From NCBI GenBank assembly GCA_009377635.1, contig WHTR01000001.1:41257-105256 (forward strand): a stretch of 64,000 bases of DNA, written 5' to 3'. Position numbers and translations under genes: made by a program. The notes under the pieces were generated by a model. The model saw nothing but the letters and a program-made list of their open reading frames with translations. It did not search any database and had not been told where the DNA came from. Below are positions 2,528 to 47,444 of the stretch, piece after piece (the first letter of the stretch is position 1; each line of letters starts with the position of its first letter). Source of the stretch: Chloroflexota bacterium. GTDB taxonomy: Bacteria; Chloroflexota; UBA6077; SHYK01.

Positions 2528-2888
2528 TGGCCTCCTCCCGGCGCCGGTGGTGCATTGTACCGCCCGGCAGTCATGTGTCAACGTGCCCTCATCCCCTGCG
2601 CATACCCAAGCGCCGTCCTTCCCTGTCGGACCTTGCGCCGCAAGGGCTGCTCCGCCTTCGCAGTTGGTCCGAGCATACCCAACATCGACCCAATGTGGCA
2701 TTCCCACCCCGAAACACGACCTGCTCGCAGGCGACACCCTCTACGGGGTCATCGTCGATCGACCTCGACGGATCGGGCCAGGATGCTGTCCACTGCTGGC
2801 TATTCCGCCGCCTCGAGAGGTCGGGCTCCCAAGTGACAACCGAGCCCGTCGCCGCCTTGCCCCCAAGCTCGTCTCCCGGGGAGAGGTA

Positions 2889-4628
2889 CTACTGAACGCC
2901 CCAAAGGTGGGCGTTGCGGGTGTAGGTGCCGTAGGGCTGGCCGGCTTGGGCACCACCACCAAGATCGTCGAAGGCGGCAATGCCTCGGCGCATGCCGATC
3001 AAGTCCGTGTTGTAATAGGTCACCAGAAAGGGCAGCTCGGCCACAACGTAGTCGCTGATTGCGTTCATGGCCTGAAACTGCTCGGGTTCGGACAGGGCCG
3101 TGTAGTAACGGGCGAGCAGCTCCTGCGCCCGCGGCTCCTCGAAGCCACCACGGTTCCCGGTCCACCGGTTCGCCGGCGCCGCCGCCGGCCCTTCGAGCCG
3201 TCCAAGCACTGAGTCACCGGCGCCGGAGGAGCTGGGTTCCCACCCCGGGTAGCTCGCGCGCAGCTCATTGTCCCGCGCCTGCGGGCCGGGGATCTGGTGC
3301 TCCTCGACCTCCAGCCCGATGCGACGCCAAAAGTCAGCGAACACGGGCATCTCCCACGCTCGGGAGCTACCCGTGACCCAGATCTGCGTGCGGAACGGGC
3401 GTCCGTCCGCGGCGTTCCGCAGTACGCCATCCGTGCCCGCCGCCCAGCCCAGGTCGCGCAGAATCGCCTTCGCCCGATCGGGGTCGTATGCGTAGCGGCG
3501 GAAGCCGTCCTTCGTCGCCTCGTACAGTCGATCGCCCGGAGGTAGCAGCGACCAGGCTGCTTGCTCCTTGAAGCCGGTCCCGCTGGTCAGCTCCTCACGA
3601 TCGATCGCATGATAGAGAGCAGCGCGCACGCGCGGGTCCAGGACGGCTGGTTCTTGCTGGACCGACAGTCGCATCTGGGGCGAGAGAAACCTGGTCCCGC
3701 CCGACCGCAAGAATAGGGTGCCCTCGCCGCTGCTGTCCCACTGCTCTTTAAGCTGCACGGCGAGGTCGGTGGACAGCGCCGTATCTGCGAGGATGTCGAC
3801 TGAGCCCGCCAAGAGGTGCGCGAAAAGCGTGTTCTGGTCCGAGTAGGTCCGCACTCTGACGACGTCGACTTTGGGCCGACCGAGGAAGTAGTTCCCGTAG
3901 GCCTCGTAGTCGGTCCCCTCGCCAGGATCGAACGATCTCAGCCGAAATGGGCCCAAATGCACGTAGTCCGACGTCCAGTAAGGATGGTTCACTACGGGAT
4001 CCGAGTCCCCTGTTGCCAAGTATTGTTCGAACGGTTCCCTCAGCACATGCGCCGGCTGGGGCCAGAATCGGCGGAGTCCGAGGGCTCCGCCCAGATAGTA
4101 CGGTTCCCGGAAATAAGTCACGAATGTATGATCGTCGAGCGCCTCCGCTGCTGCCATCTGATTGACCCCTTCGTTCAAGTTCGAAGGGATCCCTGGGTTG
4201 GACATGAACGTGTAGGAGAAGACCAGGTCGTGAGCGGTGAAGGGAGCGCCGTCCTGCCAGGTCACTTCCCTTCGTAACTTGTAGATTACCTTCATGCGAC
4301 CATCCGGCAGGACCGAAATAGAGCCATCCTCCAGCGAGGGCACCCCCTCAGCCAGGCGACCGACCAGCGCCCGGGTGTGCACGTCGCTCGTGATCAGTCC
4401 ATTCGAATGCAGCTCGCTGACGGTGCCCCAGCCGCCGACCGTCGTGCTGGCGCCCAAGATACTCATGGCCTGCACGCCCGTCGTGACGCCGATCGTGAGG
4501 CTCTTGGTTCGAGGAGCCTGCTGGCCGCCGCCCTCCCCGCCGGATCTATTCTCGGTTGGAGCAGACGGAACGCAACCGGCCACGACCACGAGCACCACCG
4601 AGGCAATTGGAAGAAGACGCCAGATCAC
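2889..4628 (-). CDS. ABC transporter substrate-binding lipoprotein, family 5 (DppA/OppA-like); orphan
   Basis: GTG start with GAGGAG RBS; lipobox LVVVAGC; 579 aa. Paralog of four other SBP5 ORFs in the window. No permease or ATPase genes nearby. Confidence 0.8.
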   Translation of the reverse strand: MIWRLLPIASVVLVVVAGCVPSAPTENRSGGEGGGQQAPRTKSLTIGVTTGVQAMSILGASTTVGGWGTVSELHSNGLITSDVHTRALVGRLAEGVPSLEDGSISVLPDGRMKVIYKLRREVTWQDGAPFTAHDLVFSYTFMSNPGIPSNLNEGVNQMAAAEALDDHTFVTYFREPYYLGGALGLRRFWPQPAHVLREPFEQYLATGDSDPVVNHPYWTSDYVHLGPFRLRSFDPGEGTDYEAYGNYFLGRPKVDVVRVRTYSDQNTLFAHLLAGSVDILADTALSTDLAVQLKEQWDSSGEGTLFLRSGGTRFLSPQMRLSVQQEPAVLDPRVRAALYHAIDREELTSGTGFKEQAAWSLLPPGDRLYEATKDGFRRYAYDPDRAKAILRDLGWAAGTDGVLRNAADGRPFRTQIWVTGSSRAWEMPVFADFWRRIGLEVEEHQIPGPQARDNELRASYPGWEPSSSGAGDSVLGRLEGPAAAPANRWTGNRGGFEEPRAQELLARYYTALSEPEQFQAMNAISDYVVAELPFLVTYYNTDLIGMRRGIAAFDDLGGGAQAGQPYGTYTRNAHLWGVQ

Positions 4629-15263: not shown

Positions 15264-15441
15264 GCGGTAACCTCCTCTCCACAAACAGTGTTGAGGAAGC
15301 ATCTTCTCTTGGGCTGTGGCGTTATGTGCCCGGTGGAGCCTACGTCCAGCCACTAATCCTCGTGATCACGGCCACCGTCTGCTCCTGGACACATAACGCA
15401 GTCGGGCACAGAACCCCGAATATGTTCCGCGGAACATATTC

Positions 15442-18205: not shown

Positions 18206-18544
18206 ATGAGAGAACACAGCAGCCACCCGTCCCAGCGGCGCTACCCGCCCGAACTCAAAGACCGGGCTGTCCGGCTCGTATTCGAGACCGCGGCCGAGCG
18301 CGGTGACCACCACGGCGCGGTGACGATCGTCGCCCATCAGCTGGGGATCGGCCCGGAGTCGCTCCGCACCTGGGTTCGGCAGAGCGAGATCGACGCCGGT
18401 CGCCGGGCCGGCCTCACGACCGAGGAGCGCGAGCGAATGAAGGTCCTGGAGCGGGAGAACCGGGAGCTCCGCCGGGCCAACGAGATCCTCAAGAGCGCGG
18501 CGGCTTTCTTCGGGGCGGAGCTCGACCGCCGCTCGCCGCGATGA
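18206..18544 (+). CDS. IS3-family transposase OrfA (HTH)
   Basis: ATG at 18206 is preceded by GGAGGA. …LERENRELRRANEILKSAAAFF leucine-zipper region typical of IS3 OrfA. Confidence 0.8.
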   Translation: MREHSSHPSQRRYPPELKDRAVRLVFETAAERGDHHGAVTIVAHQLGIGPESLRTWVRQSEIDAGRRAGLTTEERERMKVLERENRELRRANEILKSAAAFFGAELDRRSPR

Positions 18545-19229: not shown

Positions 19230-19363
19230 GCGCTCAGCTAAATTCCCCACCCGCGTGCGGCATGGTTCAGAAAGCTATTGACAGTTGAGAGGGAGGCGGC
19301 AGGACACGGCTCGCACCGGGGGTATGCTGAACGTGGTTCCCACCCAGCATACCGGAGCTCGCC

Positions 19364-20993: not shown

Positions 20994-22730
20994 ATGTTGG
21001 AAGTGCTCGTGAGACGCACGCGCGGGGTCACGCTCACCGTTCTCGCCGGCGTAGCGCTGATGGCGTGCGCGCCGGGCGGTGCCCAGCAGAGCCCCGCGGC
21101 CGAGCGGTCGGGGCCGGAGGCTCGGCAGCCTCGCACGCTGAACTCGGTCATGCGCGTCGAGCCCGCCAGCCTTGCCGCCAAGCCCCTCGAGTCCACCGGT
21201 ATCAGCGTGGCGCATGCCGTCCGGTTGTTCAACGCGCAATTGGACTTGAAAGACAGCCGCGAGGTGACTCGGCCCTACCTGGCAGAAGCCATTCCCGAGC
21301 TCAACTCCGAAAGCTGGAGGGTCTTCCCCGACGGACGGATGGAGACCACGTATCGGCTCCGGCCTAACCTCACGTGGCACGACGGCACGCCGCACTCCGC
21401 AGAAGACTTCGCCTTTGCGTACCGGGTCTACTCGACCCCGGAACTCGGCCGGGCGGCGTCGCCGCCCATCAATCAGATGGAAGAGATGCTAGCCCCCGAC
21501 GAGCGGACCGTGGTGAATCGCTGGAGCCGCCCCTATCCGGACGCTGCTGAGCTCGGGCTGGACTTCCAGGCGCTGCCGCGTCACATCCTGCAGGAGGCGT
21601 ACGAGACCCAGGAACCACAGTCCTTCTTGGAGAATTCATTCTGGACCGTGGACTACGTTGGCCTGGGACCGTTCCGTCTCGAGCGGTGGGAACCTGGAGC
21701 TGCCATCGAGGCGGTGGCCTTCGACGGGCATGCGCTGGGCCGTCCCAAGATCGACCGCGTCGTCGTCCGGTTCATGACCGACGAGAACACGGTCCTTACC
21801 AACCTCCTGGCCGGCGACATCGACTTCGCCTCCGATCGGACCGTGCGATGGGAGCAGGCGCAGGTCCTGAGGAACGAGTGGGGCGCCAGCGGTGGTGGAA
21901 CCGTGATCCTGACACCGATCCAGCCTCGGTTCACCGTCATTCAACTCCGCCCGGAGAATGCGAGCCCAGCGGCCATCCTCGACCTGCGCGTGCGCCGGGC
22001 ATTCGCCCACGCCATCGACCGGCAGGCCTTCAACGACGGGCTCTTCGACGGCGCGGGGGTGGCCGCCGAGACGCACATTACGCAGAAGGCGCCGTACTTC
22101 CTGGAGGTCGATCGAGCCATCGTCAAGTACCCGTACGACCCTCGGCGGAGCGAGCAGCTCATGAACGAGGCCGGGTTCACGCGGGATCGCGACGGTTTCT
22201 ACGCAAGCGCCGTGGGCGAGCGCTTCACGGCCGGGTTCCTGCAGGAGGCCGGCACGCAGACCGAGCGAGAGATGGCGATCCAGGTCGAGCGGTGGCGTGC
22301 GGCCGGGTTCGACGTCCAGGTGTCGGTGCTGCCCTCGACGCAGCTCCGGGATGGCCAGGCGCGCTCCACGTTCCCGACCTTCTATAACACGGCCACGAGC
22401 CCGGCCGTCCGGGGCGGCGAGCGGAACCTCGGCAACTTCACGACGGACTCCAGCGGGACGCCGACCAACCGTTGGCGCGGCAGCAACTACGGGGGCTGGT
22501 CGAACTCCGAGTACGATGACCTCTGGGACCAGTTCAACACGACGCTCGAACGGTCGGAGCGGAACCAGCAGGTCGTGGAGATGGCGCGGCTCATCAGCGA
22601 AGACCTGCCGCTGTACAGCCTGTACTGGAACTTCAACGTCTCGGTCCACCGCGCGGACGTGGGCGGCCCGGACCCGGAGGCGGTCGATACCCTCGTCAAC
22701 GCGAACATCCATGAGTGGGAGTGGCGCTGA
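20994..22730 (+). CDS. ABC transporter substrate-binding lipoprotein, family 5; orphan
   Basis: MLEVLVRR…LAGVALMAC lipoprotein signal. Paralog of 27211..28932 (same motif blocks). Confidence 0.8.
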   Translation: MLEVLVRRTRGVTLTVLAGVALMACAPGGAQQSPAAERSGPEARQPRTLNSVMRVEPASLAAKPLESTGISVAHAVRLFNAQLDLKDSREVTRPYLAEAIPELNSESWRVFPDGRMETTYRLRPNLTWHDGTPHSAEDFAFAYRVYSTPELGRAASPPINQMEEMLAPDERTVVNRWSRPYPDAAELGLDFQALPRHILQEAYETQEPQSFLENSFWTVDYVGLGPFRLERWEPGAAIEAVAFDGHALGRPKIDRVVVRFMTDENTVLTNLLAGDIDFASDRTVRWEQAQVLRNEWGASGGGTVILTPIQPRFTVIQLRPENASPAAILDLRVRRAFAHAIDRQAFNDGLFDGAGVAAETHITQKAPYFLEVDRAIVKYPYDPRRSEQLMNEAGFTRDRDGFYASAVGERFTAGFLQEAGTQTEREMAIQVERWRAAGFDVQVSVLPSTQLRDGQARSTFPTFYNTATSPAVRGGERNLGNFTTDSSGTPTNRWRGSNYGGWSNSEYDDLWDQFNTTLERSERNQQVVEMARLISEDLPLYSLYWNFNVSVHRADVGGPDPEAVDTLVNANIHEWEWR

Positions 22731-22794
22731 ATCGGGTCATCGGGGAGATGCACCGATCCAGAGCAGGGCGGTCGGCGGTCGCGCCTCGACATCG

Positions 22795-23151
22795 TCAGGG
22801 GGGCAGCTCGCCGGAGTGCAGCAGATCGTAGACGGCCTGCCATGCCGGCACGTGGGTCTCCACGTCCTCTGCCGACGTGACCACGGTCTTGCTGGCCTTG
22901 CGGACCGTCTGCTGGTCCAGCTCCTCGGGCGTATTCGAGATCACCGTGCAGCCCGGCCCTCCGGTGTGGCCGTTGATCACCGGGTCGCGGGTGGACGTTG
23001 CCATGACGGCCACGTCCGTTCCCTCCACGGCTTCGTCGTTGGACGCGCAGTTCACGGTCTCCGCACCCAGCCGTTGACCGATGAAGGCGCAGAACTCCGA
23101 CGCGAGCGGCTGCTGGAGCAGACGCGCGATTGGGGGGACCCGTTCCAGCAC
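22795..23151 (-). pseudogene. ornithine cyclodeaminase/mu-crystallin family, C-terminal remnant
   Basis: NCASNDEAVEGTDVAVMATSTRDPVINGHTGGPGCTVIS resembles the OCD ADIVvTAT..PV..G.WL.PG.HI block. No room for the N-terminal Rossmann part before the next gene. Confidence 0.4.
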
Positions 23152-23294
23152 GGGATCACGGCGAACAAGGCGATCATCGATACGTCCTCGCGTACAACAC
23201 CGAGATGGGCATCGTGAGGCAGTCCTACAACTACGAGCAGGCCTTTGTGTCCGGCGCGCTCGATGCGTGACGAGCCGGCCACAGTGTTAATCGC

Positions 23295-24197
23295 TCAGTG
23301 GCGCAGTGCCTCCTCGAGGAAGCTTGCCTCCAGGAACTCGGTCACCGGCACCGGAGGCAGCCCGCGCTGCTCGCAGATCTTCTGTATTGCTTTATCGAGC
23401 ACCGCCGGGTCCACCTCAAGGCGCCAATACGGGGCGACCTCATCGTATGCCCCCTTGGCGATCTCGGGGGTCGTGACACCCCACTCTCGGCAGTACTTCA
23501 GCATGATGTCTATCGTACCGGCGACGTTCTCCATGCAGTACCGCATGCCCCGCACATAGGCATCGACGAACGCACGGACCAGAGCGGGGTCGCGCCGAAT
23601 CGTGTCTGGCGACGCGTACAGGCCGGCTCCAGAGGGGCTCGGGCTGTAGTTGGACTCATGGCCCAGATTTCGGTAACCGGCCCGCGCCGCGATCTGGGAC
23701 CATGGGGCGCCTAAGGTCGCCGCGTCGCCGATCCCCTCCTCGAGCATGTCCCACTGCTCCTTGTGCGACCCCTCCACGCCCTGCGTTTGGATCTCCTCGC
23801 GTTCCAGATCAAGACCGTGGATGGCGAGGATGTTGCGCAGCTCCGTAACGAAACGCTGCGCGTTGGGCCCACTTCCACCGGGGATGAGGATGTGTTCCAG
23901 CTCGTGCGCGGACGCAATCCGGGGCCGAGCCATCAGCACGTGCGACGACTCGCGGCTCGAGATGCTGGCAAGCTGCCGGACCGGCATGCCATCGAGAAAC
24001 TGCCTGTATGCAGCCATGCCGGTGGCAAAGTCGACCTCGCCTTGGACCATCTCATTGAGGCCGGCCTGGTAACGAATCACGCCCTCGAGGCCACGCTCAG
24101 CCAGGAAGCCGCGCTCGACCGCCGCGAAGATTGGCGTGAAGAACGGGGCGGGGCGGGGGGCCGAAATCACTACTCGTGTCGCCATCCTCTCCTCCAT
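23295..24197 (-). CDS. NMT1/THI5/SsuA-fold protein without signal peptide
   Basis: 300 aa; paralog of 131..1093. The start may instead be MATRVVIS at 24185, where GGAGGAGAGG directly precedes it. Confidence 0.5.
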   Translation of the reverse strand: MEERMATRVVISAPRPAPFFTPIFAAVERGFLAERGLEGVIRYQAGLNEMVQGEVDFATGMAAYRQFLDGMPVRQLASISSRESSHVLMARPRIASAHELEHILIPGGSGPNAQRFVTELRNILAIHGLDLEREEIQTQGVEGSHKEQWDMLEEGIGDAATLGAPWSQIAARAGYRNLGHESNYSPSPSGAGLYASPDTIRRDPALVRAFVDAYVRGMRYCMENVAGTIDIMLKYCREWGVTTPEIAKGAYDEVAPYWRLEVDPAVLDKAIQKICEQRGLPPVPVTEFLEASFLEEALRH

Positions 24198-24349
24198 ACT
24201 CGGCGGGTGACCCGCTCGCTACACAGGGACGCACACTGGCTTGGACGATAGGGCGATGCGTGCATGGTGTCCAACGAAACGCCCGTCGTCGAAGGACGGG
24301 CGGTCACGACGTCGGCCGTCGTGCGCCCGCTCTGGTTATCGCGCCCCCG

Positions 24350-26050
24350 TTAGCGCATCGCCCATTCATGGACGTTCCAGCCAGTATTCGTTGCGCTAAT
24401 GCCCTCGATGCGACTGTTCACGACGACGACCGTCGCATTGTAGAGCATGCTCATCGCCACGACCCGCTCGGTAATGTGATGGATCGCCTGGGAGGCGACC
24501 TGCATGCGCTCGCCGAACGGGACGGTAACGAAGTATCTCTCGATGAGCGTGTCCAGCTCCGGGTTCACGTATCGCATGCGGTTGTTGCCCCGATAGTTGT
24601 TCTCGGGAAGCGACGACTCCTTGCCGTGGAATCGCTGGAGCAAGGTCAGGTTGCTTGGCTGATTCACGAGGTCGAAGCCCGGGAAGTTCGCGCGCCACTC
24701 GCGATCGGTGGCCTGCTGGGGAGGTATGACAAAGGCATCTGTCTCGATGCCGGCGCGTTGCCAGGCATCTGCAATGGCGAGGAGCAGGTTCTTGCCCAGC
24801 TCGACGCCAGCGGTCGTGCGCATCTCGACGGAGAGGCGCTGGGTGTTGGGATCGAGATAGAAACCGTCCGCCCCGCGCGCGTAACCCATCTCTTCGAGCA
24901 TCTGAGCCGTCCGCCGAGGGTCATATGCATGCCGAACGACACTGGCCTCGATGTCTTTGAACTCAGGCTGGTTTGGACCGACGAAGACGTGTGCGGGCGG
25001 CACCAACCCCCGCTGGAGGCTCGCTGCCAGCTCCTCGCGATCCACGGCGTGGAGGAGCGCGCGACGGAACTGGAGTTCGGCGATCGCCGGGGGGTTCGGG
25101 TTCAGGTACTGGGGAAAGGCGCAGAGGCAGCCAGCCACGGCGAGCTCGATCCGCACGTCGCGCCGCTGCGTCTGGATGGTCTCGGCCTGCTCGAGGGCGA
25201 GACCTCGGCCCATCGTCACATCGACAGCGCCGGCGAGGATGTTGGCGATCATGGTGTTCGGGTCCAGGATGAACTTTACCTCGATCTCGTCGACGACCGG
25301 TCGACCCAATACATACTGGTCGTTCGCGGCTATGACCATATGACTCCCCGCTACCCATTCCCGCAGGCGGTATGGGCCCATACCCACGAAGTCCTGGCTC
25401 CAGTAGGAGACCTCCACGAAGCCGGCCTTGTTGTCCGTGTATGCCTTTTCGAGGAGGTGTTTCGGCAGCGGCAGCGCCCGCTCGTGGCTGAACATGGTAT
25501 CGGCCTCGATGTACGGCTGCGTCCATCGCACCGTCACGGTGTAGGGGGATACCGGCTCCACGCTCTCGAGGAACTGATAGGCGCGGTCCCCGAAGTGCGG
25601 GAGCTCCGGGTCCTGACCGACCATTGCTGTGAAGACGAGGTCCTCGGCGGTGAACGGCGCGCCGTCGTGCCAGAGGGCGCCCGGCCGGATCCTCCACGTC
25701 ATCTCCATGTGCCCGTCCGGGAATATCTGCCACATCTCGTTCTCCACGGTCGGGACGGATTCGGCCAGCGCGGGTCGGAGCGCCCCCGTATCGTCTTGGA
25801 CCGTGAGACCGGCATGGATCAACCGCTCCACCTCCGTTACCCCTGGCACCCCACCAGCGCCCGCACTGTTGATGCTGTCGCTGAGCGTGGGCGGATCACC
25901 CTTGATGGCGATAGCGAAGCGCGTCGGCGCTGCCTGCCGGTCGGCAGGCTCGGCGCCGCCTGGAACGGTGCCCGGCCCCGGCGCGGCACACGCCGCCAGA
26001 ACGACGGAGGCAACCAGAAACGCGACTTTCGCTCGAATCCCCACCGTCAT
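24350..26050 (-). CDS. ABC transporter substrate-binding lipoprotein, family 5; orphan
   Basis: GGGAGGG RBS; lipobox LAAC; 566 aa. Confidence 0.8.
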   Translation of the reverse strand: MTVGIRAKVAFLVASVVLAACAAPGPGTVPGGAEPADRQAAPTRFAIAIKGDPPTLSDSINSAGAGGVPGVTEVERLIHAGLTVQDDTGALRPALAESVPTVENEMWQIFPDGHMEMTWRIRPGALWHDGAPFTAEDLVFTAMVGQDPELPHFGDRAYQFLESVEPVSPYTVTVRWTQPYIEADTMFSHERALPLPKHLLEKAYTDNKAGFVEVSYWSQDFVGMGPYRLREWVAGSHMVIAANDQYVLGRPVVDEIEVKFILDPNTMIANILAGAVDVTMGRGLALEQAETIQTQRRDVRIELAVAGCLCAFPQYLNPNPPAIAELQFRRALLHAVDREELAASLQRGLVPPAHVFVGPNQPEFKDIEASVVRHAYDPRRTAQMLEEMGYARGADGFYLDPNTQRLSVEMRTTAGVELGKNLLLAIADAWQRAGIETDAFVIPPQQATDREWRANFPGFDLVNQPSNLTLLQRFHGKESSLPENNYRGNNRMRYVNPELDTLIERYFVTVPFGERMQVASQAIHHITERVVAMSMLYNATVVVVNSRIEGISATNTGWNVHEWAMR

Positions 26051-26175
26051 GGTCCCTCCCGTTGATCACCCGGTTGTACGCTCACCTGTCTCAAGCAGGC
26101 TGGAACCGCGAGCCCAGAGTGCCGTGGCAATGCGCTCTTGCGGCGAGGGTGTTCGCCCACTCAACGTGAACACCG

Positions 26176-27138
26176 TTACCTCGCCGTTCCCTCGGACGCC
26201 AGCTCGTCGATAAACCCGGCGTTATCCAGCTCCCGCAGGTCGTGCAGGTCCCACAGCGCCAGCGCACTGACCGCTCGTGCCTCCGGGTACTGCATGCAGC
26301 AAAGCTCATAGGCGTTCGCCACGGCCAGCGGATCCGGGTACGGCTTCAGAGGCAACCGCGCCAAGCCCGCAGCACGCCCGCCCCGGCCACCCTCGGAGAA
26401 CGCCGCACTCGGCTGGCCGAGCAGCGCCTGCGCCTCCTCCTGGTGCGTCCGAGCAAAGTGAATCGTCAGGACCATCGCCTTCACCAACCGCTCCCCCAGC
26501 CGATCCTTGGCATGGAGCGCGGTGAGCGATGTGGTGATCGTCGGACCGGTGATCATCGGGAGCGGGTCGAGCCGCAGGACGGAGAACCCCGCCTGCTCGT
26601 AGTCCTCGACACCACCCGACACGAACGTCGCGTCGCAGGTGCCGCCCGTCATCGCCTCCCACTGCGCCTTACGAAACGCCTCCCCCATGTAGTCAGCGAC
26701 CACGACCCACTCCACCTCGTCGAGCCCCACCCCGGCCTGCTTGACGTACAGCATGTGGTTGCCCCGGATGTGGTGGTAGCCCCCGATCGGATCCTCGATG
26801 GCCGTGTCGGCGATGCGCTTGCCTCGCAGGTCACCGAGCGTGCGGATCGGCTCGCGCGAGATCACCGCGTCGCGCACGCGATTCCCCGGCGAGGCCAGGC
26901 ACACGATTGGCTTGCCCTGCGCCACCTTGGCGTATGGGCTGATGTGGTTACCCGCCACGACGTCGACCCGTCCGTCAAAGAGCGCCGCCTCGGCCTTCGA
27001 CGAGCTCTCGCAGAAGGCCAGGCTCGCCAGCCGCATGTGGAGCTGGCCGAGGACACCGGCCTTGTCCGCCAGCTCCCAGATCGTCGAATGGCCCGCCCTG
27101 AACTCCACGTGCAGCTCGACGGGGCTGTAGTCCGCCAC
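26176..27138 (-). CDS. NMT1/THI5/SsuA-fold protein without signal peptide
   Basis: GTG start at 27138 (VADYSPVELHV) is preceded by GAGGAGG. The track start at 27174 is a TTG. Confidence 0.5.
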   Translation of the reverse strand: MADYSPVELHVEFRAGHSTIWELADKAGVLGQLHMRLASLAFCESSSKAEAALFDGRVDVVAGNHISPYAKVAQGKPIVCLASPGNRVRDAVISREPIRTLGDLRGKRIADTAIEDPIGGYHHIRGNHMLYVKQAGVGLDEVEWVVVADYMGEAFRKAQWEAMTGGTCDATFVSGGVEDYEQAGFSVLRLDPLPMITGPTITTSLTALHAKDRLGERLVKAMVLTIHFARTHQEEAQALLGQPSAAFSEGGRGGRAAGLARLPLKPYPDPLAVANAYELCCMQYPEARAVSALALWDLHDLRELDNAGFIDELASEGTAR

Positions 27139-27210
27139 GGCTCGCCTCCTCGTTTCGCAACAGTCGCCAATCAAGCGCCTCGGGTAGCACGGTGCTGCCC
27201 CACGCTCGTC

Positions 27211-28932
27211 TCATTCGAGCTCCCACTCGTGGATGTTGAAGGTGATGAGCGTGTCGTTCAGCGTCCCGGGATCCGGCCCGCGGAGAACGTTCAGGTAGGC
27301 GGTCGCAGCGAAGTTGAAGAACAGCGGGATCACCGGCAGCTCTTCGCTGATCAGGGCCTCCATCCGGACGACCTGGGTGTTCCGCTCGGCGCGGTCAAGG
27401 GTGACGGTGAAGGTCTCCCATAGCCGATCGTACTCCGGGTGCGACCAGCCACCCCGGTTGCCACCCTGCCACCGGTTCTGCGCCGTGCCGATGTCCGCCG
27501 TGCGGAGGAACTGCATGCGGTCCTCCCAGACCCCCTGCCCAGTCGCATTCTGCACGCCAGGGAACGTGGCGCGCTCCTCTGCGTCGCGGGACCGAGCGAC
27601 CGGAACGATGTAGGCTTCGGCATCGACCCCTGCTCGCCGCCAGGTGTCTACCATGATCGCCGTCTCCCGCTCTGGCTGGGCTCCGGCCTGGTTCATGAGC
27701 TGCAGGCCGAAGCGCTCGCCGGCCGCGTTGACAAGCATCCCGTCGGCACCTTTCACGGAGCCGGCCTCGTTCAGAAGCTGCTCGCTGCGGAGCGGATCGT
27801 AGTTGTACGTGGTGACGGCGCGCTCGATGTCACTGAAGTAAGGGACGCTGTGGCGGATCAGGTTCGCGGTCATGACCCCCGCGCCGTCGAACAGGCCGTC
27901 GTTGAGTGCCTGCTTGTCGATGGCGAGGGCAAGGGCCCGCCGGACGCGGACGTCGAGCAGCGCGCGGGGGCTGGCGTACTCGGGTCTCATCTGGACATGC
28001 GTGTACCGCCCCTGCGTGGGTGTCAGCACGACCGTCCCCGTCCCGCTCGCGGCCCATTCAGCCCTCAGCGGGCTCGCCTGCTCGAAGCGGATCGCGCGGT
28101 CCGCCACGATGTGCACGTTCTCAGAGAGCAGATTCGCATGGGCCGTGTTCTCATCAGCGACGAAGCGGATATGCAGCCGGTCGATCTTCGGCCGGCCCAG
28201 GACGTGGCCGTCGAACGCAACCCCCTCGAGATGGGCGCCCGGCTCCCAGCGATCGAGCCGGAAGGGTCCCAGGCCAACGTACTCGGTGGTCCAGAAGGGA
28301 TGGTTGATGAATGCGTCCGGCTCGCCCTCCTGGAATGGCTGCTCAAGAAGATGCCGGGGCAACGCCTGGAACCCGTCCGCCAGCGACTCGGCAAAGGGGT
28401 ACGGCTGCCGCCATCGGATCACGAGCGTGCGGGCGCTCGGCGCCGCCACTTCCTCCATCAGTCCTTGCGGCGCGCGATCGGCGATCCCGAGCTCGCGCGC
28501 CGCGTAGACACGCCACGCGAAGACGAAGTCCTCGGCATGCAGTGGCACGCCGTCATGCCACGTAACGTCGGGCTTGAGGCGATACGTCGTCTCCATGCGC
28601 CCGTCCGGCAGCAGGCGCCAGCTGTCCGTGTTGAGCTGCGGCAGCACCTCCGCCAGGTACGGACGCGGCTGCTCGCGGGTGTCCTCGATGTCGAGGGTGG
28701 CGTTGAAGGACCGGGTCGCGTTCTGGATGCTGATGCCGCCGGCAACCAGCGCCTTCGCCGCCAGCGTGTTCGGCTCGGCTCGGATCAGCATGTTGAGCGT
28801 CCCGCCCCGGCGGGGCGTCGACACCTGGTCGCCGCTCACGCTCGGCGCTCCCGAGGACGGCCCCACACCGGCGCACGCGGACAACATGACGATCGACACA
28901 CCCAGGAGGATCGGCTTCCATTGTGCCGACAT
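27211..28932 (-). CDS. ABC transporter substrate-binding lipoprotein, family 5; orphan
   Basis: Start MSAQWKPILLGVSIVMLSAC at 28932 is preceded by GGAGAGAGG. 573 aa. Confidence 0.8.
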   Translation of the reverse strand: MSAQWKPILLGVSIVMLSACAGVGPSSGAPSVSGDQVSTPRRGGTLNMLIRAEPNTLAAKALVAGGISIQNATRSFNATLDIEDTREQPRPYLAEVLPQLNTDSWRLLPDGRMETTYRLKPDVTWHDGVPLHAEDFVFAWRVYAARELGIADRAPQGLMEEVAAPSARTLVIRWRQPYPFAESLADGFQALPRHLLEQPFQEGEPDAFINHPFWTTEYVGLGPFRLDRWEPGAHLEGVAFDGHVLGRPKIDRLHIRFVADENTAHANLLSENVHIVADRAIRFEQASPLRAEWAASGTGTVVLTPTQGRYTHVQMRPEYASPRALLDVRVRRALALAIDKQALNDGLFDGAGVMTANLIRHSVPYFSDIERAVTTYNYDPLRSEQLLNEAGSVKGADGMLVNAAGERFGLQLMNQAGAQPERETAIMVDTWRRAGVDAEAYIVPVARSRDAEERATFPGVQNATGQGVWEDRMQFLRTADIGTAQNRWQGGNRGGWSHPEYDRLWETFTVTLDRAERNTQVVRMEALISEELPVIPLFFNFAATAYLNVLRGPDPGTLNDTLITFNIHEWELE

Positions 28933-29032
28933 GGCGTCCTCTCTCCCCTGCTCGTTCGCGGACACATCGAGCGAATCCAAACCGCGTTCGTGCCGCTCAA
29001 GCACCGGTGGTGATCGGCAGGGCTACCGTCTC

Positions 29033-30412
29033 CTACTCGGCCACGCGGCTCGCCAGCTCGCGCGTCTCCTGGATCTCCACGTCGGCCCGCTCCCAGAACC
29101 GGTGCCAGTCAACGGAGGCGGGGAGTACGAGATCATTGCGCACGACGATGCGCTCGAAATGGTTATCGACTGGATTCCGAACCACGTGGGGCGGCTCGCG
29201 GCCCGCCTGCACGTCCCGGATCGCGGCGAGGAGCACCTTCCGCGCGGCGAAGAGGCCCCGGTCGGTGTAGCCGAGATGCTCGGTCGTCCGATCCTGAACG
29301 GGCCCCTCTCCCTCGGTCGCCATGGTGTCGTGCAGGATGAAGTTTCGGCCCAGGCCGGAGAAGCTCTGGGTCTGCATCTCGTCGCGGTCCTGGAGATACC
29401 GATTGGCATTGTTTCGCGTCAGCCAGTAGTCGCTCGTTTTGTCCGCACCTAGTCGCCGCCTCGGATCGACGGGCGTGGACCGATTGAAGCGGATGCCGTA
29501 CCGCCAATGGTGCGTGTCATCGATCGGCATGTGCCAGTTCACGCTGTACCCCTCACGGTCGCCGGCAACGCCGCTGAGGTTGGGAAGAATGAAGTTCGTG
29601 ACCCGAACGTAGGTGCGGTCCGGGCCGGCGGGCCGCACCGCGTAGATCCGGACCCCGAAGTCTGTGATCTCCGGCTCGATCGTGGGGCAGGTGAACCGCG
29701 TGTTGAGCGACTGACGGACTCCGTCCTCGGTGCTGCCGTCGGCGGCGAGCCGGTGCAGGAACGACAGGTGCGCGGGATCGAGATTCCCCTCGTTCCCCTG
29801 CAGGAAGTTGCACTCCTGAAACGTCTTGCTGCTCGACCAGAACCCGTCGGGGGCCGACAGGAACTCGTAGGCCGGCAGCAACGGCGGCTCGCCGGGCCCC
29901 AGGTACGCGAAGATGATGCCCGTGTGCTCAACGCACGGATAGGCGGTGTGGCGAATGCGCTCGCGGAAGCTGCGCGCCGCCCCTGCCGGGGAGCCAGGCT
30001 CGTCGCTGCCTCCAACGTCCTGGGCCGCCATGTTGGAGGACGGGGCCGAGTCCCGTCCTCCCCAATGGGAGCGGCGCCCCGCCGCCTCGCCGGGCTGCTC
30101 GAGGCATCGCCCCTGAACGTCGTAGAGCCATCCGTGGTAGAGGCAGCGGAGCCCGCCATCCTCGATCCGGCCGTAGCTCAGGTCGGCGCCGCGGTGCGAG
30201 CAGTGGAGCCCCAGCAGCCCAGGCCGCCCCTGCTCGTCGCGGAACAGGACGAGATCCTCGCCGAGGAGCCGAACCGGCAACGGCGGCCCGCCTGGGGGCA
30301 GCTCCTCCCCAAGGGCGGCCGGCTGCCAGTAGCGGCGCAGCAGCTCCCCCATGCCGGTTCCCGGGCCGACCCGGGTCAGCAGCTCCTGCTCTTCCCTCGA
30401 TGCCATCGCCAC
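29033..30412 (-). CDS. Rieske non-heme iron oxygenase alpha subunit (phthalate/KshA/VanA-like, alpha-only type)
   Basis: N-terminal EEQELLTRVGPGT…RYWQP. Rieske CSHRG…C.YHGW present. GGAGGTG RBS. Confidence 0.85.
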   Translation of the reverse strand: MAMASREEQELLTRVGPGTGMGELLRRYWQPAALGEELPPGGPPLPVRLLGEDLVLFRDEQGRPGLLGLHCSHRGADLSYGRIEDGGLRCLYHGWLYDVQGRCLEQPGEAAGRRSHWGGRDSAPSSNMAAQDVGGSDEPGSPAGAARSFRERIRHTAYPCVEHTGIIFAYLGPGEPPLLPAYEFLSAPDGFWSSSKTFQECNFLQGNEGNLDPAHLSFLHRLAADGSTEDGVRQSLNTRFTCPTIEPEITDFGVRIYAVRPAGPDRTYVRVTNFILPNLSGVAGDREGYSVNWHMPIDDTHHWRYGIRFNRSTPVDPRRRLGADKTSDYWLTRNNANRYLQDRDEMQTQSFSGLGRNFILHDTMATEGEGPVQDRTTEHLGYTDRGLFAARKVLLAAIRDVQAGREPPHVVRNPVDNHFERIVVRNDLVLPASVDWHRFWERADVEIQETRELASRVAE

Positions 30413-30427
30413 ACCTCCATCGCCGGA

Positions 30428-31891
30428 TCACTGCTCGGGGAAGGGGAGGATACCCCGATACTTCTCCACCACCTGCCGACGCAGCGCGCGCGGCGCCCGA
30501 CTCACCTGCGGGAACTGATCCCTGAGCTGAAACGGCCGCGTCGCGTAGAAAATCGCCATGCTATTCGTGTGGTCGCCTGCGTCGGACCGCGCCCGGTCCG
30601 CCGACACGAGCGGGTCGAGCGGCGTACTCCAGCACCCATCGACGATCTCGATGTCCCGCGCCGGGTCGCAGCGGGTCGTCATCGCCCAGAGCACCTCCTT
30701 CAGGTCGGTGGCGTCGATGTCCTCGTCGACGACCACAATCCACCGGCCGTTCCGCGTCGCCGCGAATGCCGCGTGCGCCGCCTGCTTCGCGTGCCCCGGG
30801 AAGCGCTGCCGAAGCGAGATGGCCCGAATGTACCCCATGTGGCTCGCCGACTGGACAACGTCCTGGACGCCGGCCCGGAGCAGGTCGGCAACACCGGCGC
30901 GGCCTTCGCCGAGCGCGAGTCCGCCGTCGCTGCGGGCGCCGGGCCACATCGGGGCGCCACCCCCGAGGATCGGGGTGTTCCGATGATAGATCGCCTTGAC
31001 CCGAATCACTGGCTGGGGCTCGCCCGTCCCCACGGTGCCCCCGGAGTAGTAGCCCGGCCACTCCCCGAACGGCCCCTCGTCACGCGCCTCCACCCACGGA
31101 GGCGGGACCTCGCCCTCGATGGCGATCTCCGCGTGAGCGGGAATCGGAAGCCCGGTGATCGGCCCGCGCACGATCGCGACGGCCCGTCCACGGATGCCGC
31201 CGGCGTAATCCAGCTCCGACTCCCCCCAGGGCAGCCGGGTGTGGGAGGCCATGAACAGCAGCGGATCCTCACCAAAGACCGCCACCACCGGGCAGCTCTC
31301 CCCCCTCTCCCAGTACCGCTGGCAGATCAAGCGCCCCTGCTGACCCGGACTCATCCACAGGCCGAGGAGGTTCCGCTCGTGCACCTCCATTCGATAGGTG
31401 CCGACGTTGACGTAGCCGGAATCCGGGTCCTTATTGATGAGCGAGTCGTGCGTCCCGATGTAGCGGCCGCCGTCCATGGCGTGGTAGCGCGGCACTGGGA
31501 AGCGCAGGAGGTCGACCTCGTCCCCGGTGAGGACGTTCTCCATCACGGGCCCGGTCGGCACCTCCTCGGGCGGGATCGGGCGCGCCTCCCGGAGCTTGCG
31601 CCGCCCCAGCTCGGACAGCTCCTGGCGGCTCTTCCCCTCGAGCGGGAGGCCGAGCGCCAGAGCCATCCGCTTGGCTCCTCCGATCACATTCGTCGCGATG
31701 CGAAAGCCCGGCGGGTAGCCATTGACCGCATCGAAGATCAGCATGGGCGGGTCGGGGATCAGCTCGGCGGTCGCCTCGAGGAGAGCCCCGATCTCCTCGT
31801 TCCAATCGGCGCCTTCGATGATCCGGTACTCGTCCACCTCCATCGCCGCATCGACGAACTCCTGGAGCCCGTCGAAGACCGTTCCGGACAT
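30428..31891 (-). CDS. UbiD-family decarboxylase
   Basis: 487 aa, colinear with 1103..2527 over its whole length. Confidence 0.85.
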   Translation of the reverse strand: MSGTVFDGLQEFVDAAMEVDEYRIIEGADWNEEIGALLEATAELIPDPPMLIFDAVNGYPPGFRIATNVIGGAKRMALALGLPLEGKSRQELSELGRRKLREARPIPPEEVPTGPVMENVLTGDEVDLLRFPVPRYHAMDGGRYIGTHDSLINKDPDSGYVNVGTYRMEVHERNLLGLWMSPGQQGRLICQRYWERGESCPVVAVFGEDPLLFMASHTRLPWGESELDYAGGIRGRAVAIVRGPITGLPIPAHAEIAIEGEVPPPWVEARDEGPFGEWPGYYSGGTVGTGEPQPVIRVKAIYHRNTPILGGGAPMWPGARSDGGLALGEGRAGVADLLRAGVQDVVQSASHMGYIRAISLRQRFPGHAKQAAHAAFAATRNGRWIVVVDEDIDATDLKEVLWAMTTRCDPARDIEIVDGCWSTPLDPLVSADRARSDAGDHTNSMAIFYATRPFQLRDQFPQVSRAPRALRRQVVEKYRGILPFPEQ

Positions 31892-44367: not shown

Positions 44368-44424
44368 GGCTACGCGGACGAGAGGTATGCTCTCACAGTC
44401 GAAATGACCGAGCGGGGGCAGAGG

Positions 44425-45720
44425 ATGCTCAAGAAAGAGGAAAACGAGCTCCTGACGCGAGTGGGGCCCGGCACGCCCGGCGGCGAGATGCTGCGGCGCT
44501 ACTGGCAGCCCGCCGCCCTCTCCGTCGAGCTTCCGCCTGGCGGCCCGCCGGTCCCCCTACGCCTGCTGGGGGAGGGCCTCGTCATGTTCCGCGACCAGGA
44601 GGGGCGACTTGGCCTCCTCGGACTGCACTGCAGCCATCGTGGGGCTGACCTCAGCTATGGGCGGCTGGAGGATGGTGGAATCCGCTGCCTTTATCACGGC
44701 TGGCTCTACGACGTCGAGGGCCGATGCCTCGAACAGCCGGGCGAGCCGGCTGGCAGCACGTTTCACGACCGTATTCGTCACCCCGCCTACCGGTGCCACG
44801 AGGTCGCAGGCGTGATCTTTACCTATATGGGCCCAGGCGAGCCACCGCTCTTCCCGAACTACGAGCTGTTCCGCGTGCCGGACGACAACCGCTGGGTTCA
44901 CAAGCAGTACCACGAGTGCAGCTATCTCCAGGGCAACGAGGGGAACATCGACTCGATTCACGTGCGGTTTCTGCACCGTTATCTGCCCGGCAGTCGGTTC
45001 CGCCGCTCCAGGGAGCTGGACGGCGAGGGCCGCCCGGCTCGACCCTTCGATGAAAGCTTGCCCTCCTCAGCGTCGAGGTGCGAGGAGACCCACTTCGGCG
45101 TTCGCATCTACTCGCTCCACGACACGCACGCCGCCACCTACATGCGGACGACAAACTTCGTTATCCCGCTGACGTGTGCCGTGCCGGGCGGGCCCGCGCC
45201 GCCGGGTGACGGCTACCTGATGAACTGGCACGTGCCGATTGACGACACGCACCACTGGCGGTTCTCCATGGCCTTCAAGCGCTCCGGCCCGCTCGACCCG
45301 AACTACGCGCAGGCGCGGGCCTCTGTTACCGACGAGACCTTCCGCTCGCCCCGCAATAAGGCGAACCGCTACCTACAGGATCGCGAGGAGCAGAAGCACG
45401 ACACGTACGCCGGCATGGGCCCGATCTTCGTCGTGCAGGACGCCTTTGCGACCGAGACCGCGGGCGAGATCCAGGACCGCTCGAGAGAGCACCTGGCGGC
45501 GAGCGATGCCGGTCTCGCAGCCGCTCGCCGGATGATGCTGCGGGCAATCAAGGACGTGCAGGAGGACCGCGACCCGCCGCACGTCATCCGTCGACCTGAA
45601 GACCAGGACCGCCTGCTGGAGATCAGCGTGACCAGCGAGCAGGTGCCAGTCGGCACGACGTGGGAGCAATACCGCGTGCAGCGCGGGGTCACGTTCGGCG
45701 CCATCGGCATCGAGGACTAG
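44425..45720 (+). CDS. Rieske non-heme iron oxygenase alpha subunit
   Basis: MLKKEENELLTRVGPGTPGGEMLRRYWQP; CSHRG…C.YHGW; ends in TAG. Confidence 0.8.
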   Translation: MLKKEENELLTRVGPGTPGGEMLRRYWQPAALSVELPPGGPPVPLRLLGEGLVMFRDQEGRLGLLGLHCSHRGADLSYGRLEDGGIRCLYHGWLYDVEGRCLEQPGEPAGSTFHDRIRHPAYRCHEVAGVIFTYMGPGEPPLFPNYELFRVPDDNRWVHKQYHECSYLQGNEGNIDSIHVRFLHRYLPGSRFRRSRELDGEGRPARPFDESLPSSASRCEETHFGVRIYSLHDTHAATYMRTTNFVIPLTCAVPGGPAPPGDGYLMNWHVPIDDTHHWRFSMAFKRSGPLDPNYAQARASVTDETFRSPRNKANRYLQDREEQKHDTYAGMGPIFVVQDAFATETAGEIQDRSREHLAASDAGLAAARRMMLRAIKDVQEDRDPPHVIRRPEDQDRLLEISVTSEQVPVGTTWEQYRVQRGVTFGAIGIED

Positions 45721-45725
45721 GATCG

Positions 45726-47444
45726 ATGGATCTCCACCTTCCGGTCCGGGCGCTGTCGACGCTTGTGCTCATGCTTGCCGCGTGTACGCCGACCAGCGGC
45801 CCGCGAGAGCAAGCCGCGGAACCCGTGCAGCAGCAGAGTGCTTCTCGTGCCCTAGTCATGGCGGTCAACACCGAGGTGAAGACGCTCGCGGCGAAGATGC
45901 TCGGCCCGACTAACCCTGAGCGGACGACGCGGATCTTCAATGCCGGCCTCTCGCTCGTCGACGCCCAGGGCGTCGTGCGCCCGTACATGGCCGAGGCTCT
46001 GCCCCAGCTCAACAGTGATAGTTGGAGGGTCTTTCCGGACGGGCGCATGGAGACGACGTGGAAGCTCCGCCCGGGCCTCACATGGCACGATGGGACCCCG
46101 CTGAGCGCGGAGGATTTCGCCTTCGGCTACCGCGTCTATACCTCGCCGCTCGCCGTCTTCTCGGCGAAGCCGCAACATCTGATGTCCGAAGTCTCCGCCC
46201 CGGACCCCACGACGCTCATCATCACCTGGAGCAGGTCGTATCCCGATGCGACACAGCTCTCGTCCACCGAGTTCGGCCCGCTCCCCCGCCATCTGCTGGA
46301 ACCGCAGTTCTCCAGCTACCTGCAGGACGCCGCCAACCCAGAGCCCTTCCTCGCCCTCCGCTACTGGAGCACGGAGTTCGTCGGTAACGGCCCATTCCGC
46401 CTAGCGAGCTGGGATGCCGGTATCCAGATGGAGGGCGCGGCTTTCGACGGCCATCCGCTCGGACGTCCGAAGATTGACCGGGTCGTCATCCGCTTCTTCA
46501 CCGACAACAACGTCACCTTGACGAACATCCTGGCGGGCAACGTCGACCTCACGATGATCCAGACGCTCCCGTTCTAGCAAGGCTTGCTGCTCGAACGGGA
46601 CTGGGCGACCAGCAAGCGTGGCTCGGTGATCTACCAGTCGACGTCCACGCAGACTATCGCCGTCCAGCAGCGTCCGGAGTTTGTTGGCTCCCGTGCCCTC
46701 CTGGACGTCCGCGTCCGAAGGGCTCTTGCCCACGGAATCGATCGCGATGCGCTGAACGAGGCGCTCTTCTCAGGCAAGGGTTCGATCGTCCACTCGTGGG
46801 TGGATCCCAGGCAGTCGATCTTTCCCGAGGTGGACCGGGCCATCACGAAGTATCCCTACGATCCACTTCGCCTTGACCAGCTCTTGACCGAAGCCGGCTT
46901 CCATCGCGACCGGGAAGGCTTTTTCGCGAGCGAGGCGGGCGAGCGATTTCAGCCGAGTCTGTGGGTCACGTTCAGTACCCAGCTCGAGCGGCAGCTCGCG
47001 ATCATGACGGATACGTGGCGGCAGGCGGGCGTCGACTTCCAACCGTATATCATCCCGGGCGCGCAGGCGCGCGATAACCAGTTCCGGTCAACGTTCCCCG
47101 GCCTGCTCGGCTACGGAGTCAGTCCCGCCACGATCTCCGCGCTTGAGACGTTCACCACGGACCAGATTGGCAGCGCGTCGACGCGCTGGGGCGGCCAGAA
47201 CCGCGGCGGGTGGGCAAGCCTCGAGTACGACCGCCTGCTCGTCGCATTCCACAGCACGCTCGATACGACGGCCCGCACCCGACACGCGGTGGACATGCTC
47301 AAGCTGCTGAGCGAGGAGGCGCCGACCTATCCAGCCTTCCGCGACCAGGGCATCATCTGCTACGTCGCGGGCCTCAGGGGACCGGAACAGCAACTGCCCG
47401 AAGCCCTCGCCCACTGGAACATCCACCTCTGGGAGCTCAGTTAA
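45726..47444 (+). pseudogene. SBP family 5 lipoprotein paralog interrupted by an in-frame TAG (46576..46578) at a conserved Glu position
   Basis: Signal MDLHLPVRALSTLVLMLAAC. ...TMIQTLPF*QGLLLERDW aligns to ...VRWEQAQVLRNEW of 20994..22730. Downstream frame is intact to 47444. Confidence 0.7.

Follow-up and report, generated by a model that had tools for sequence, protein, structure and literature searches.

Why should a bacterial gene cluster hold many genes for exported binding proteins, and beside them genes for proteins of a similar fold that are not exported, when no transporter genes accompany them? The question is raised by a stretch of 64,000 nucleotides from an uncultured member of the Chloroflexota (contig WHTR01000001.1 of assembly GCA_009377635.1, positions 41,257 to 105,256; hereafter the window), with a G+C content of 66%. 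It carries five genes for substrate-binding lipoproteins of family 5 (SBP_bac_5; SBP5_A to SBP5_E), which among about 55 genes is far above the usual genomic frequency, and three genes for signal-less proteins with a binding-protein fold (NMT_1 to NMT_3), which are exact matches to genes of a Chloroflexi metagenome-assembled genome (MAG; Table 1). Coding open reading frames (ORFs) were chosen by third-position GC, and Pfam scans were run on about 50 of them. We find that the SBP5 part of the locus is probably an ordinary phenomenon, that of extra binding proteins which share an importer, though the family, the lineage and the context are unusual, and that the signal-less part consists of three uncharacterised and mis-annotated families, one of which is significantly syntenic with binding-protein genes across phyla. 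The best explanation of the window as a whole is that it forms part of an aromatic-acid catabolic island rich in mobile elements.

The initial annotation had described the SBP5 genes as lacking permease and ATPase genes nearby, and scans of the whole window for motifs, helices and Pfam domains confirmed this. We found no Walker A or LSGGQ motif in its six frames, no coding-type ORF with two or more hydrophobic helices, and no transporter component among the ORFs scanned with Pfam; the 64 kb therefore contain no transporter membrane or ATPase gene of any class. The concern that permease genes might lie just outside the window was not borne out in the 9.5 kb past its left edge, which we read on a Logan contig from the same sequencing run: this flank holds short-chain dehydrogenase, Rieske, cupin and molybdenum hydroxylase genes, a third UbiD gene and a sixth SBP5 gene, and shows neither a permease gene nor an ABC ATPase motif nor an ORF with several membrane helices. 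Furthermore, across the Chloroflexota-type loci that we compared (the window and the related loci L001, L004, L012, L014, L048 and L072), about 21 distinct SBP5 genes occur in about 150 kb with zero ABC (ATP-binding cassette) ATPase or permease genes, so that the orphan layout is conserved and not accidental. It is a habit of the lineage rather than debris, though the island also contains debris.

Orphan SBP5 genes are real here, but they are no feature of this window in particular; in other phyla, the same pair of an NMT_3-family gene and an SBP5 gene is followed directly by permease and ATPase genes. Additionally, four Binatia loci (L009, L019, L024 and L027) have operons in which a single fused permease is accompanied by three to five SBP_bac_1 paralogues, the five being those of L009, and no ATPase gene was found within the 20 kb read of these loci. 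These operons show directly that, in the same type of island, several binding proteins can go with one translocator. The fused permease has about 574 residues, and two NMT_3-family copies lie around it.

All five SBP5 genes were found where they had been placed, each encoding a hydrophobic N-terminus that ends in a lipobox, but only four are intact. SBP5_E, otherwise full-length, is interrupted by a single in-frame TAG at 46575-46577 and is either a pseudogene or the result of a sequencing or assembly error. The intact four score 169-183 bits against PF00496 (gathering cut-off 32.4 bits) and, like the three NMT genes, are full-length with a strong coding signal (third-position GC 0.78-0.87). 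The paralogues share 28-54% identity by BLASTP, with SBP5_A at 28-32% to the other four and SBP5_B, SBP5_D and SBP5_E in a subgroup at 45-54% (54% between SBP5_B and SBP5_D, 46% between SBP5_B and SBP5_E); they are old paralogues. A recent tandem duplication as the origin of the order SBP5-NMT-SBP5-NMT was rejected, SBP5_C and SBP5_D being only 31% identical and NMT_2 and NMT_3 having no BLASTP similarity. All NCBIfam equivalog scores were far under their cut-offs (for instance 90-121 bits against 650 for Opp4A), and in this test no SBP5 protein of the window was equivalent to a named member (OppA, DppA, NikA, GsiB and others). The nearest solved structures in the Protein Data Bank (PDB) are generic peptide binders (E 1e-22 to 1e-27), and the ligand class is not readable from the sequence.

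Upon examining the neighbours of these genes, we observe that SBP5_B is isolated, with a transposase-like ORF on one side and an OCD gene fragment on the other, that SBP5_C sits directly downstream of NMT_3, and that SBP5_D directly follows a gene for a Rieske oxygenase. Another Rieske gene precedes SBP5_E, and the two Rieske genes are 49% identical, so that the window contains a Rieske-SBP5 module twice; on the groundwater contig L001 the order UbiD-Rieske-SBP5 is found again. The closest relatives of SBP5_C, in L014 (64% identity) and L048 (48%), are both directly downstream of an NMT_3-family gene, and SBP5_D is 56% identical to an SBP5 protein of L048.

Turning to the signal-less proteins, their description as cytoplasmic stands. 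Upstream of its first possible start, each of the three genes has an in-frame stop at a distance of 3, 7 or 12 codons, which rules out longer starts, so that no signal peptide is possible even if the starts are re-annotated. The annotated starts coincide with conserved family N-termini in homologues, and the maximum hydropathy over 10 residues within the first 70 is 1.0-1.7 in the NMT proteins versus 2.3-3.3 in the SBP5 proteins. They had been taken for a trio of one kind, but they belong to three families, among which BLASTP finds no similarity; profile comparison relates NMT_2 to NMT_3 at no more than the superfamily level (94% probability, 19% identity) and NMT_1 to NMT_3 hardly at all (48%). 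Mean column identity within each family is 63-69%, across phyla, and each of the three families occurs widely, and with unusual conservation, among uncultured Chloroflexota, Binatia and further lineages of soil or groundwater. Annotation pipelines label all three 'ABC transporter substrate-binding protein', and the NMT proteins score 19-23 bits against the SsuA-family model TIGR01728, whose cut-off is 163.5. We found no characterised or solved relative for any of the three: PDB sequence searches with the single proteins and with NMT_2 and NMT_3 profiles returned no solved structure close in sequence, and a literature search on cytoplasmic binding-protein-like proteins in Chloroflexota aromatic clusters returned nothing relevant. 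Matches to the diphtheria toxin repressor in the PDB search (E of about 0.1) were discarded as noise.

The NMT1-type fold that had been expected is supported by AlphaFold models of NMT_2 and NMT_3 (mean predicted local distance difference test, pLDDT, 91 and 90), which match the type II binding-protein fold of SsuA, ThiY, THI5, DszB and MqnA-like proteins. Against SsuA, TauA and ThiY, Foldseek gives the two models a probability of 1.0, TM-scores of 0.55-0.72 and 12-19% identity; the NMT_2 model also matches 3un6 and THI5 alongside ThiY and SsuA (TM-score of about 0.7, 13-19% identity), and the NMT_3 model 3qsl, THI5 and DszB. When the window is compared with its relatives gene by gene, identity to L014 is 77% for NMT_3, 71% for UbiD (the second UbiD of Table 1) and 64% for SBP5. 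To L001 it is 67% for NMT_2, 50% for SBP5 and 41% for Rieske proteins, and to L048 57% for NMT_3, 48-56% for SBP5 and 37-40% for Rieske proteins. By these identities, the genes of the cytoplasmic NMT proteins are the slowest-evolving of the compared clusters.

The family of NMT_3 comprises more than 763 clusters at 49-81% identity in several phyla, including relatives at 49-58% in Binatia, Syntrophobacteraceae, Verrucomicrobiia/Udaeobacter, Acidiferrales and Thermoleophilaceae, all of them from MAGs and often with several copies per genome; a tblastn search against plasmids gave no match. Its invariant set includes H17, N64, H65, D111, H123, R125, N127, H128, D169 and H299. In the AlphaFold model the invariant polar residues are placed on loops after beta-strands of both lobes, and this polar set would suit an anionic ligand or a metal. 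We examined the surroundings of 96 NMT_3-family genes in 77 loci from GTDB representative genomes. A binding-protein gene, either SBP_bac_1-like or SBP5, lies within 450 nt of 56 of the 96, almost always on the same strand, against about 26% expected from the local density of binding-protein genes (about 14% of genes; one-sided binomial p = 1.6e-11). The recurrent pairing of NMT and binding-protein genes proposed in the initial annotation therefore holds statistically, but for this family alone. In about ten loci the order is NMT_3 family, SBP5, permease, permease and ABC ATPase, which indicates that the pair belongs with ABC importers. In Binatia we observe the order SBP1, NMT_3 family, SBP1, NMT_3 family, cupin, SBP1, permease, SBP1, SBP1, in which the SBP1 proteins have signal peptides and the NMT_3-family proteins have none. 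The Chloroflexota loci L014 (NMT_3 family-SBP5-UbiD) and L048 (Rieske-SBP5-NMT_3 family-SBP5) keep the order of the window, with no permease. The NMT_3 family keeps 49-58% identity while the neighbouring binding-protein gene switches between SBP5 and SBP_bac_1.

NMT_2, whose family-consensus start is MATRVV at 24185, belongs to a small, isolated clade. Its family counts 43 clusters, all of 293-307 residues and all from Chloroflexota or soil and groundwater metagenomes. In a representative library of 1.84 billion proteins there are eight matches at E<=1e-30, of which only two cover the full length. Past these, scores drop from 300 to about 100 bits, and the relatives at that level mostly carry N-terminal extensions of 28-70 residues, which marks them as true exported binding proteins. 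The nearest relatives in a collection of 15 billion proteins bear generic names ('NitT/TauT substrate-binding protein'), and tblastn against plasmids gave only partial matches to generic binding-protein genes. An SBP5 gene lies one or two genes away in each of the three independent contexts of the family that were compared. The adjacency of NMT_2 and SBP5_C, which had been read as a pairing, is real, but a terminator-like hairpin stands between the two genes, though such hairpins are no commoner here than in shuffled sequence. On the minus strand, 24245-24302 comprises a GC-rich hairpin, a T-tract and then a promoter-like site. These sites would make NMT_2 a separate transcription unit; terminator- and promoter-like sites in the window do not exceed the shuffled-sequence expectation.

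NMT_1 starts 10 nt after the stop of a UbiD gene, with its upstream in-frame stop 3 codons before the start. It matches PF16868, scores 41.5 bits against the TAXI model TIGR02122 (cut-off 84.35), and has neither a signal peptide nor a membrane gene in the window, and is for these reasons a TAXI-derived protein and not a TAXI receptor. Its family has more than 2,091 clusters (clustered, like the NMT_3 family, at 90% identity), at 55-72% identity, with conserved ends (TRSxLVLEVASEL at the N-terminus, PLHPAAERFWRERGYL at the C-terminus). Among 86 family members in 80 metagenome loci, the UbiD-linked placement that had attracted attention proved exceptional: UbiD is directly upstream in a single case, so UbiD and NMT_1 were rejected as a conserved pair, and the family usually lies between cupin and Rieske genes. 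The order cupin, NMT_1 family, Rieske, SBP1, LigB occurs in at least seven loci, which embeds the family in enzyme operons. In a tblastn search against plasmids, NMT_1 matched a 'hypothetical protein' of a Hymenobacter plasmid at 43% identity; the genes around it were uninformative.

From the gene content, cytoplasmic location, fold, conservation and synteny observed above, we propose that the island is built of repeated modules, each of which would combine a UbiD decarboxylase, an alpha-only Rieske oxygenase of LigXa type, an SBP5 lipoprotein and sometimes a cytoplasmic protein of binding-protein fold. The SBP5 lipoproteins would capture substrates outside the cell, each tuned to a different imported compound, probably an anionic aromatic, and would dock, we infer, onto one ABC translocator of Opp/Dpp type, or a few, whose genes lie elsewhere in the genome. 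With a translocator shared in this way, the SBP5 genes would be orphans only in position. The three signal-less families would descend from binding proteins of NitT/TauT type and TAXI type, would have lost export, and would act in the cytoplasm on, or with, the imported compounds. They are most likely binding-protein-derived enzymes, by analogy with Pht5/OphC in phthalate clusters, and less likely internal ligand receptors. That the SBP5 proteins feed a shared importer we regard as probable; the choice of enzymes over receptors for the NMT proteins is a tentative one, and for the explanation that combines the two parts we hold the balance to be even. The initial interpretation is partly supported; its 'uptake, sensing or enzymatic role' is compatible with the evidence, in a wording too unspecific to be put to a test.

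The preference for enzymes draws on the cleft of the NMT_3 family. Its residues are kept while the binding-protein family, the transporter type and the operon type change. This pattern is easier to reconcile with a conserved chemical step, or with a ligand moiety in common, than with an adaptor for one particular substrate, and so favours catalysis. Several points weigh against the combined explanation. A receptor without catalytic activity would also account for the high conservation and the polar cleft, and in sequence alignment the NMT families retain none of the catalytic residue sets known from enzymes of binding-protein fold. Judged from sequence profiles, the link to Pht5 is remote for NMT_3 and absent for NMT_1 and NMT_2. 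The SBP5 family classically binds peptides, nickel, opines or oligosaccharides, and an aromatic ligand is suggested by gene context only. A cognate permease and ATPase of this organism were not found in the 64 kb and the 9.5-kb left flank. Lastly, the closest relatives of the window's SBP5 proteins are not those encoded in the complete operons of other phyla, which leaves orthology to a transported system unsupported.

Among the alternatives, one that remains a serious rival would make the signal-less proteins, above all NMT_3, stand-alone sensing or acceptor subunits of ABC importers on the cytoplasmic side, in one variant handing the substrate on to the first enzyme. The excess of NMT_3-family genes close to binding-protein genes, the loci that continue into two permease genes and an ATPase gene, the alternation with SBP1 genes in Binatia, and weak sequence and fold matches to NrtC (8wm7, 8w9m) and to the regulatory domain of CmpC (9uak, 9u9z) all speak for it. 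Yet no transporter gene lies within 10 kb of the NMT_3-family gene in 21 of 47 long loci, nor in the window, and enzyme-only contexts are common (for example GFO-Rieske-NMT_3 family, or two cupin genes beside the NMT_3-family gene). The family also adjoins the binding-protein gene and not the ATPase gene, no ATPase fusion occurs among its best 120 homologues (all of about 280-340 residues), and its cleft residues are invariant although transporter family and operon type vary. We consider this alternative unlikely. A more specific form, in which NMT_3 is a new stand-alone component of ABC importers, an 'inside binding protein' that receives or senses the compound from the outside binding protein, seems to us somewhat less likely again. 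Such a protein would control transport or channel the substrate to the first catabolic enzyme, and this role would explain why the NMT_3 gene travels with two unrelated binding-protein families in at least five phyla.

It is improbable, to a slightly greater degree, that the SBP5 and NMT genes are remnants of ABC operons from which mobile elements deleted the permease and ATPase genes, leaving a functionless layout. An IS3 element, an IS4-type transposase, three tyrosine recombinases, a complete group II intron and a reverse transcriptase fragment are indeed present, as are truncated Rieske, GMC, OCD, GFO and LigB genes and the in-frame stop in SBP5_E; but the four intact SBP5 genes and the three NMT genes keep their full length and coding signal, and permease-less orders recur in the independent Chloroflexota-type loci L001, L004, L014 and L048 at 48-77% protein identity. 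Finally, we think it very improbable that the SBP5 lipoproteins are extracellular ligand sensors that induce the adjacent catabolic genes by way of membrane kinases or chemoreceptors and feed no transporter: binding-protein-dependent sensor kinases are known in other bacteria (PMC11113362), L001 has response-regulator and cNMP-binding genes among its SBP5 and NMT genes, and no transporter is near in the Chloroflexota-type loci, but Pfam finds no histidine kinase or chemoreceptor gene in the window, no gene there has two or more membrane helices, and SBP5 genes of the same neighbourhoods in other phyla precede permease and ATPase genes.

Table 1. Genes of the window named in the text, in order of position, with the family matches that identify them.
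Feature	Coordinates	Strand	Evidence
NMT_1 (GEU73_00165), signal-less, TAXI-derived, 320 aa	131..1093	-	PF16868 NMT1_3 40.3 bits (cut-off 27)
UbiD-family decarboxylase	1103..2737	-	UbiD_N, UbiD and UbiD_C domains; TIGR00148 264 bits
SBP5_A lipoprotein	2889..4628	-	PF00496 169 bits; lipobox VAGC
SBP5_B lipoprotein	20994..22730 (start 20985/20994)	+	PF00496 183 bits; lipobox LMAC
NMT_2 (GEU73_00265), signal-less NMT1-fold protein	23295..24197	-	PF09084 35.5 bits (cut-off 20.5)
SBP5_C lipoprotein	24350..26050	-	PF00496 169 bits; lipobox LAAC
NMT_3 (GEU73_00275), signal-less NMT1-fold protein, 320 aa	26176..27138	-	PF09084 28.7 bits
SBP5_D lipoprotein	27211..28932 (27211-28932/29004)	-	PF00496 171 bits; lipobox LSAC
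LigXa-type Rieske oxygenase, upstream partner of SBP5_D	29033..30412	-	Rieske and LigXa_C domains
Second UbiD-family decarboxylase, first in the UbiD-Rieske-SBP5 order	30428..31891	-	Pfam and NCBIfam matches
LigXa-type Rieske oxygenase, upstream partner of SBP5_E	44404..45720	+	Rieske and LigXa_C domains
SBP5_E, interrupted	45726..47444 (start 45660/45726)	+	PF00496 98 and 51 bits for the two halves; lipobox LAAC

The setting of aromatic catabolism that had been assigned to the locus is supported by the enzymes that Pfam recognises in the window. Of the six Rieske oxygenase genes, four are full-length and encode a C-terminal domain of LigXa type, one is truncated, and the sixth (37257-38498) matches the Rieske domain alone. 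The window also has two UbiD genes, a run of three cupin genes, whole or fragmentary genes of the GFO/IDH/MocA, GMC, LigB and OCD families, two CoA-transferase genes of family III and a thiolase-like/ChsH2 pair. The first UbiD gene of Table 1 probably has its true start internally, the gene call on the Logan contig giving 474 residues. The three successive cupin genes (5724-9595, minus strand; 349, 386 and 406 residues) lie near SBP5_A, together with a 257-residue ORF with no Pfam match (4757-5530); their lower GC of 0.61 suggests, as a feature of composition, that the block was acquired separately.

Mobile elements are represented by three adjacent tyrosine recombinases, IS3, an IS4-type transposase and group II intron reverse transcriptases. 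The recombinase genes (12016-15353, minus strand; 452, 325 and 194 residues) resemble in layout the 'recombinase in trio' mobile element, the third looking truncated. An IS3-type element within 17672-20890 (plus strand) has an ALIL frameshift pseudoknot at 18502-18615 and is followed by a transposase-like ORF of 508 residues (19364-20890, plus strand) that matches no Pfam family. A complete group II intron (47732-50217, minus strand; Rfam RF02005 with 185 bits, RF02001 and RF00029) lies about 290 nt downstream of SBP5_E and holds an intact reverse transcriptase/maturase ORF (47818-49062), and a second, fragmented reverse transcriptase gene is at 35742-36940 (plus strand). Truncated OCD, Rieske, GMC, GFO (two) and LigB genes at 22795-23151, 31986-32765, 34216-35118, 50751-51728, 55463-56074 and 56293-56757 mark the island as partly decayed; in the related locus L004 an intact OCD gene stands beside SBP5 genes. 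An ORF of 419 residues (60047-61306, plus strand) with a weak match to Cas4/PD-(D/E)XK nucleases adjoins a nucleotidyltransferase/DUF4037 gene (59040-59897) and the IS4-type transposase (61661-63385).

Chloroflexota, Binatia and neighbouring lineages are abundant in soil and groundwater and uncultured, and to our knowledge little has been established about how they take up and degrade aromatics derived from lignin and humus. If the signal-less proteins are enzymes, they would add new chemistry to the short list of binding-protein-derived enzymes, and a systematic mis-annotation, through which too many transporters are counted in metagenomes, would be corrected. As cytoplasmic partners of importers, they would be a new component of ABC transport. 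Counts of orphan SBP5 genes in such genomes are to be read as substrate range, not as transporter number.

The SBP5 part of the locus resembles importers with many binding proteins. Several OppA paralogues share one OppBCDF, Bug/TctC receptors are over-represented in Bordetella, and orphan TTT and TRAP receptors are reportedly treated in a review. As in those systems, many paralogous extracytoplasmic binding proteins, often beside catabolic genes, far outnumber the translocators; unlike them, the window has SBP_bac_5 lipoproteins in a lineage of monoderm type and a context of aromatic catabolism rather than peptides. Uptake of aromatic acids through binding proteins is described in two papers, for CouP and TarP of Rhodopseudomonas palustris, which bind lignin-derived aromatics (PMC3610893), and for TphC, the aromatic-acid binding protein of an uptake system (PMC8556258). 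These systems are likewise encoded with catabolic genes, but belong to the branched-chain type ABC, TRAP and TTT families and not to SBP_bac_5.

For the signal-less part, the regulatory domain of NrtC and CmpC is one precedent. Its C-terminal NrtA/CmpA-like module binds the imported substrate and throttles transport, and is, like the NMT proteins, a cytoplasmic binding module of NMT1 type that serves an ABC importer; it forms part of the ATPase polypeptide and recognises nitrate or bicarbonate specifically, whereas the NMT proteins are stand-alone and often have no transporter nearby. THI5, DszB and MqnA/MqnD share with them the type II binding-protein fold (SsuA/ThiY cluster), cytoplasmic location, a similar size and Foldseek TM-scores of 0.5-0.7, but differ by identities of 12-19%, by genomic context and in THI5 by its active site. 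The initial annotation had pointed to the Lys and His of THI5, which we take to be Lys62 (forming the imine with pyridoxal phosphate) and His66. They are absent: in a HMMER alignment of the family motif GEVDF with GKVDM of THI5 (residues 55-59), extended ungapped to positions 62 and 66, these positions are Gly and Tyr in NMT_2 and Gly and Ser in NMT_3. In DszB the nucleophile is presumably a Cys in the loop that follows strand 1, assisted by His and Arg; the corresponding loops, PRPAPFF in NMT_2 and R-x-(G/S)-H in NMT_3, have no conserved Cys as judged by sequence alignment, not residue-level superposition, and the sole invariant Cys residues, C221 and C280, lie in C-terminal helices.

The closest precedent in setting is 4,5-dihydroxyphthalate decarboxylase (Pht5/OphC), which we take to be a signal-less, binding-protein-like enzyme of phthalate operons; a review on phthalate does not describe its fold. 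A partial Pht5 sequence, used as query, retrieved 200 plasmid records, in which the gene is annotated as '4,5-dihydroxyphthalate decarboxylase' or 'ABC transporter substrate-binding protein'. On a Massilia plasmid the protein so annotated has 329 residues, no signal peptide and sub-threshold Phosphonate-bd and NMT1 matches. Its gene is flanked by Rieske genes and a TauE gene; upstream there are cupin and DHDPS-family genes, and farther downstream genes for a PDR/VanB reductase and a Gfo/Idh/MocA oxidoreductase. Eight of the related loci encode homologues at 29-38% identity, among them the Chloroflexota-type L004/L005 (16651-17601 and 18860-19678), the others being L071, L075, L077, L083, L108 and L147; these genes have no Pfam domain and are a fourth signal-less binding-protein-like family of the related loci, without a member in the window. 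The Massilia protein had no tblastn hit in the window at 1e-2, a profile of nine Pht5 sequences matched NMT_3 at 71% in hhalign (E 3.7e-5), NMT_2 at 23% and NMT_1 at 9.5%, and the invariant residues of Pht5 and NMT_3 do not coincide; the proteins of the window are hence not members of the Pht5 family. Pht5 nevertheless resembles them in its length of about 330 residues, its lack of a signal peptide, its weak similarity to Phosphonate-bd and NMT1, and a setting in which its own neighbours are of the Rieske, Gfo/Idh/MocA, cupin and DHDPS families. Overall, Pht5 shows that gene clusters of this kind use the folds of exported proteins as cytoplasmic enzymes, which pipelines mislabel.

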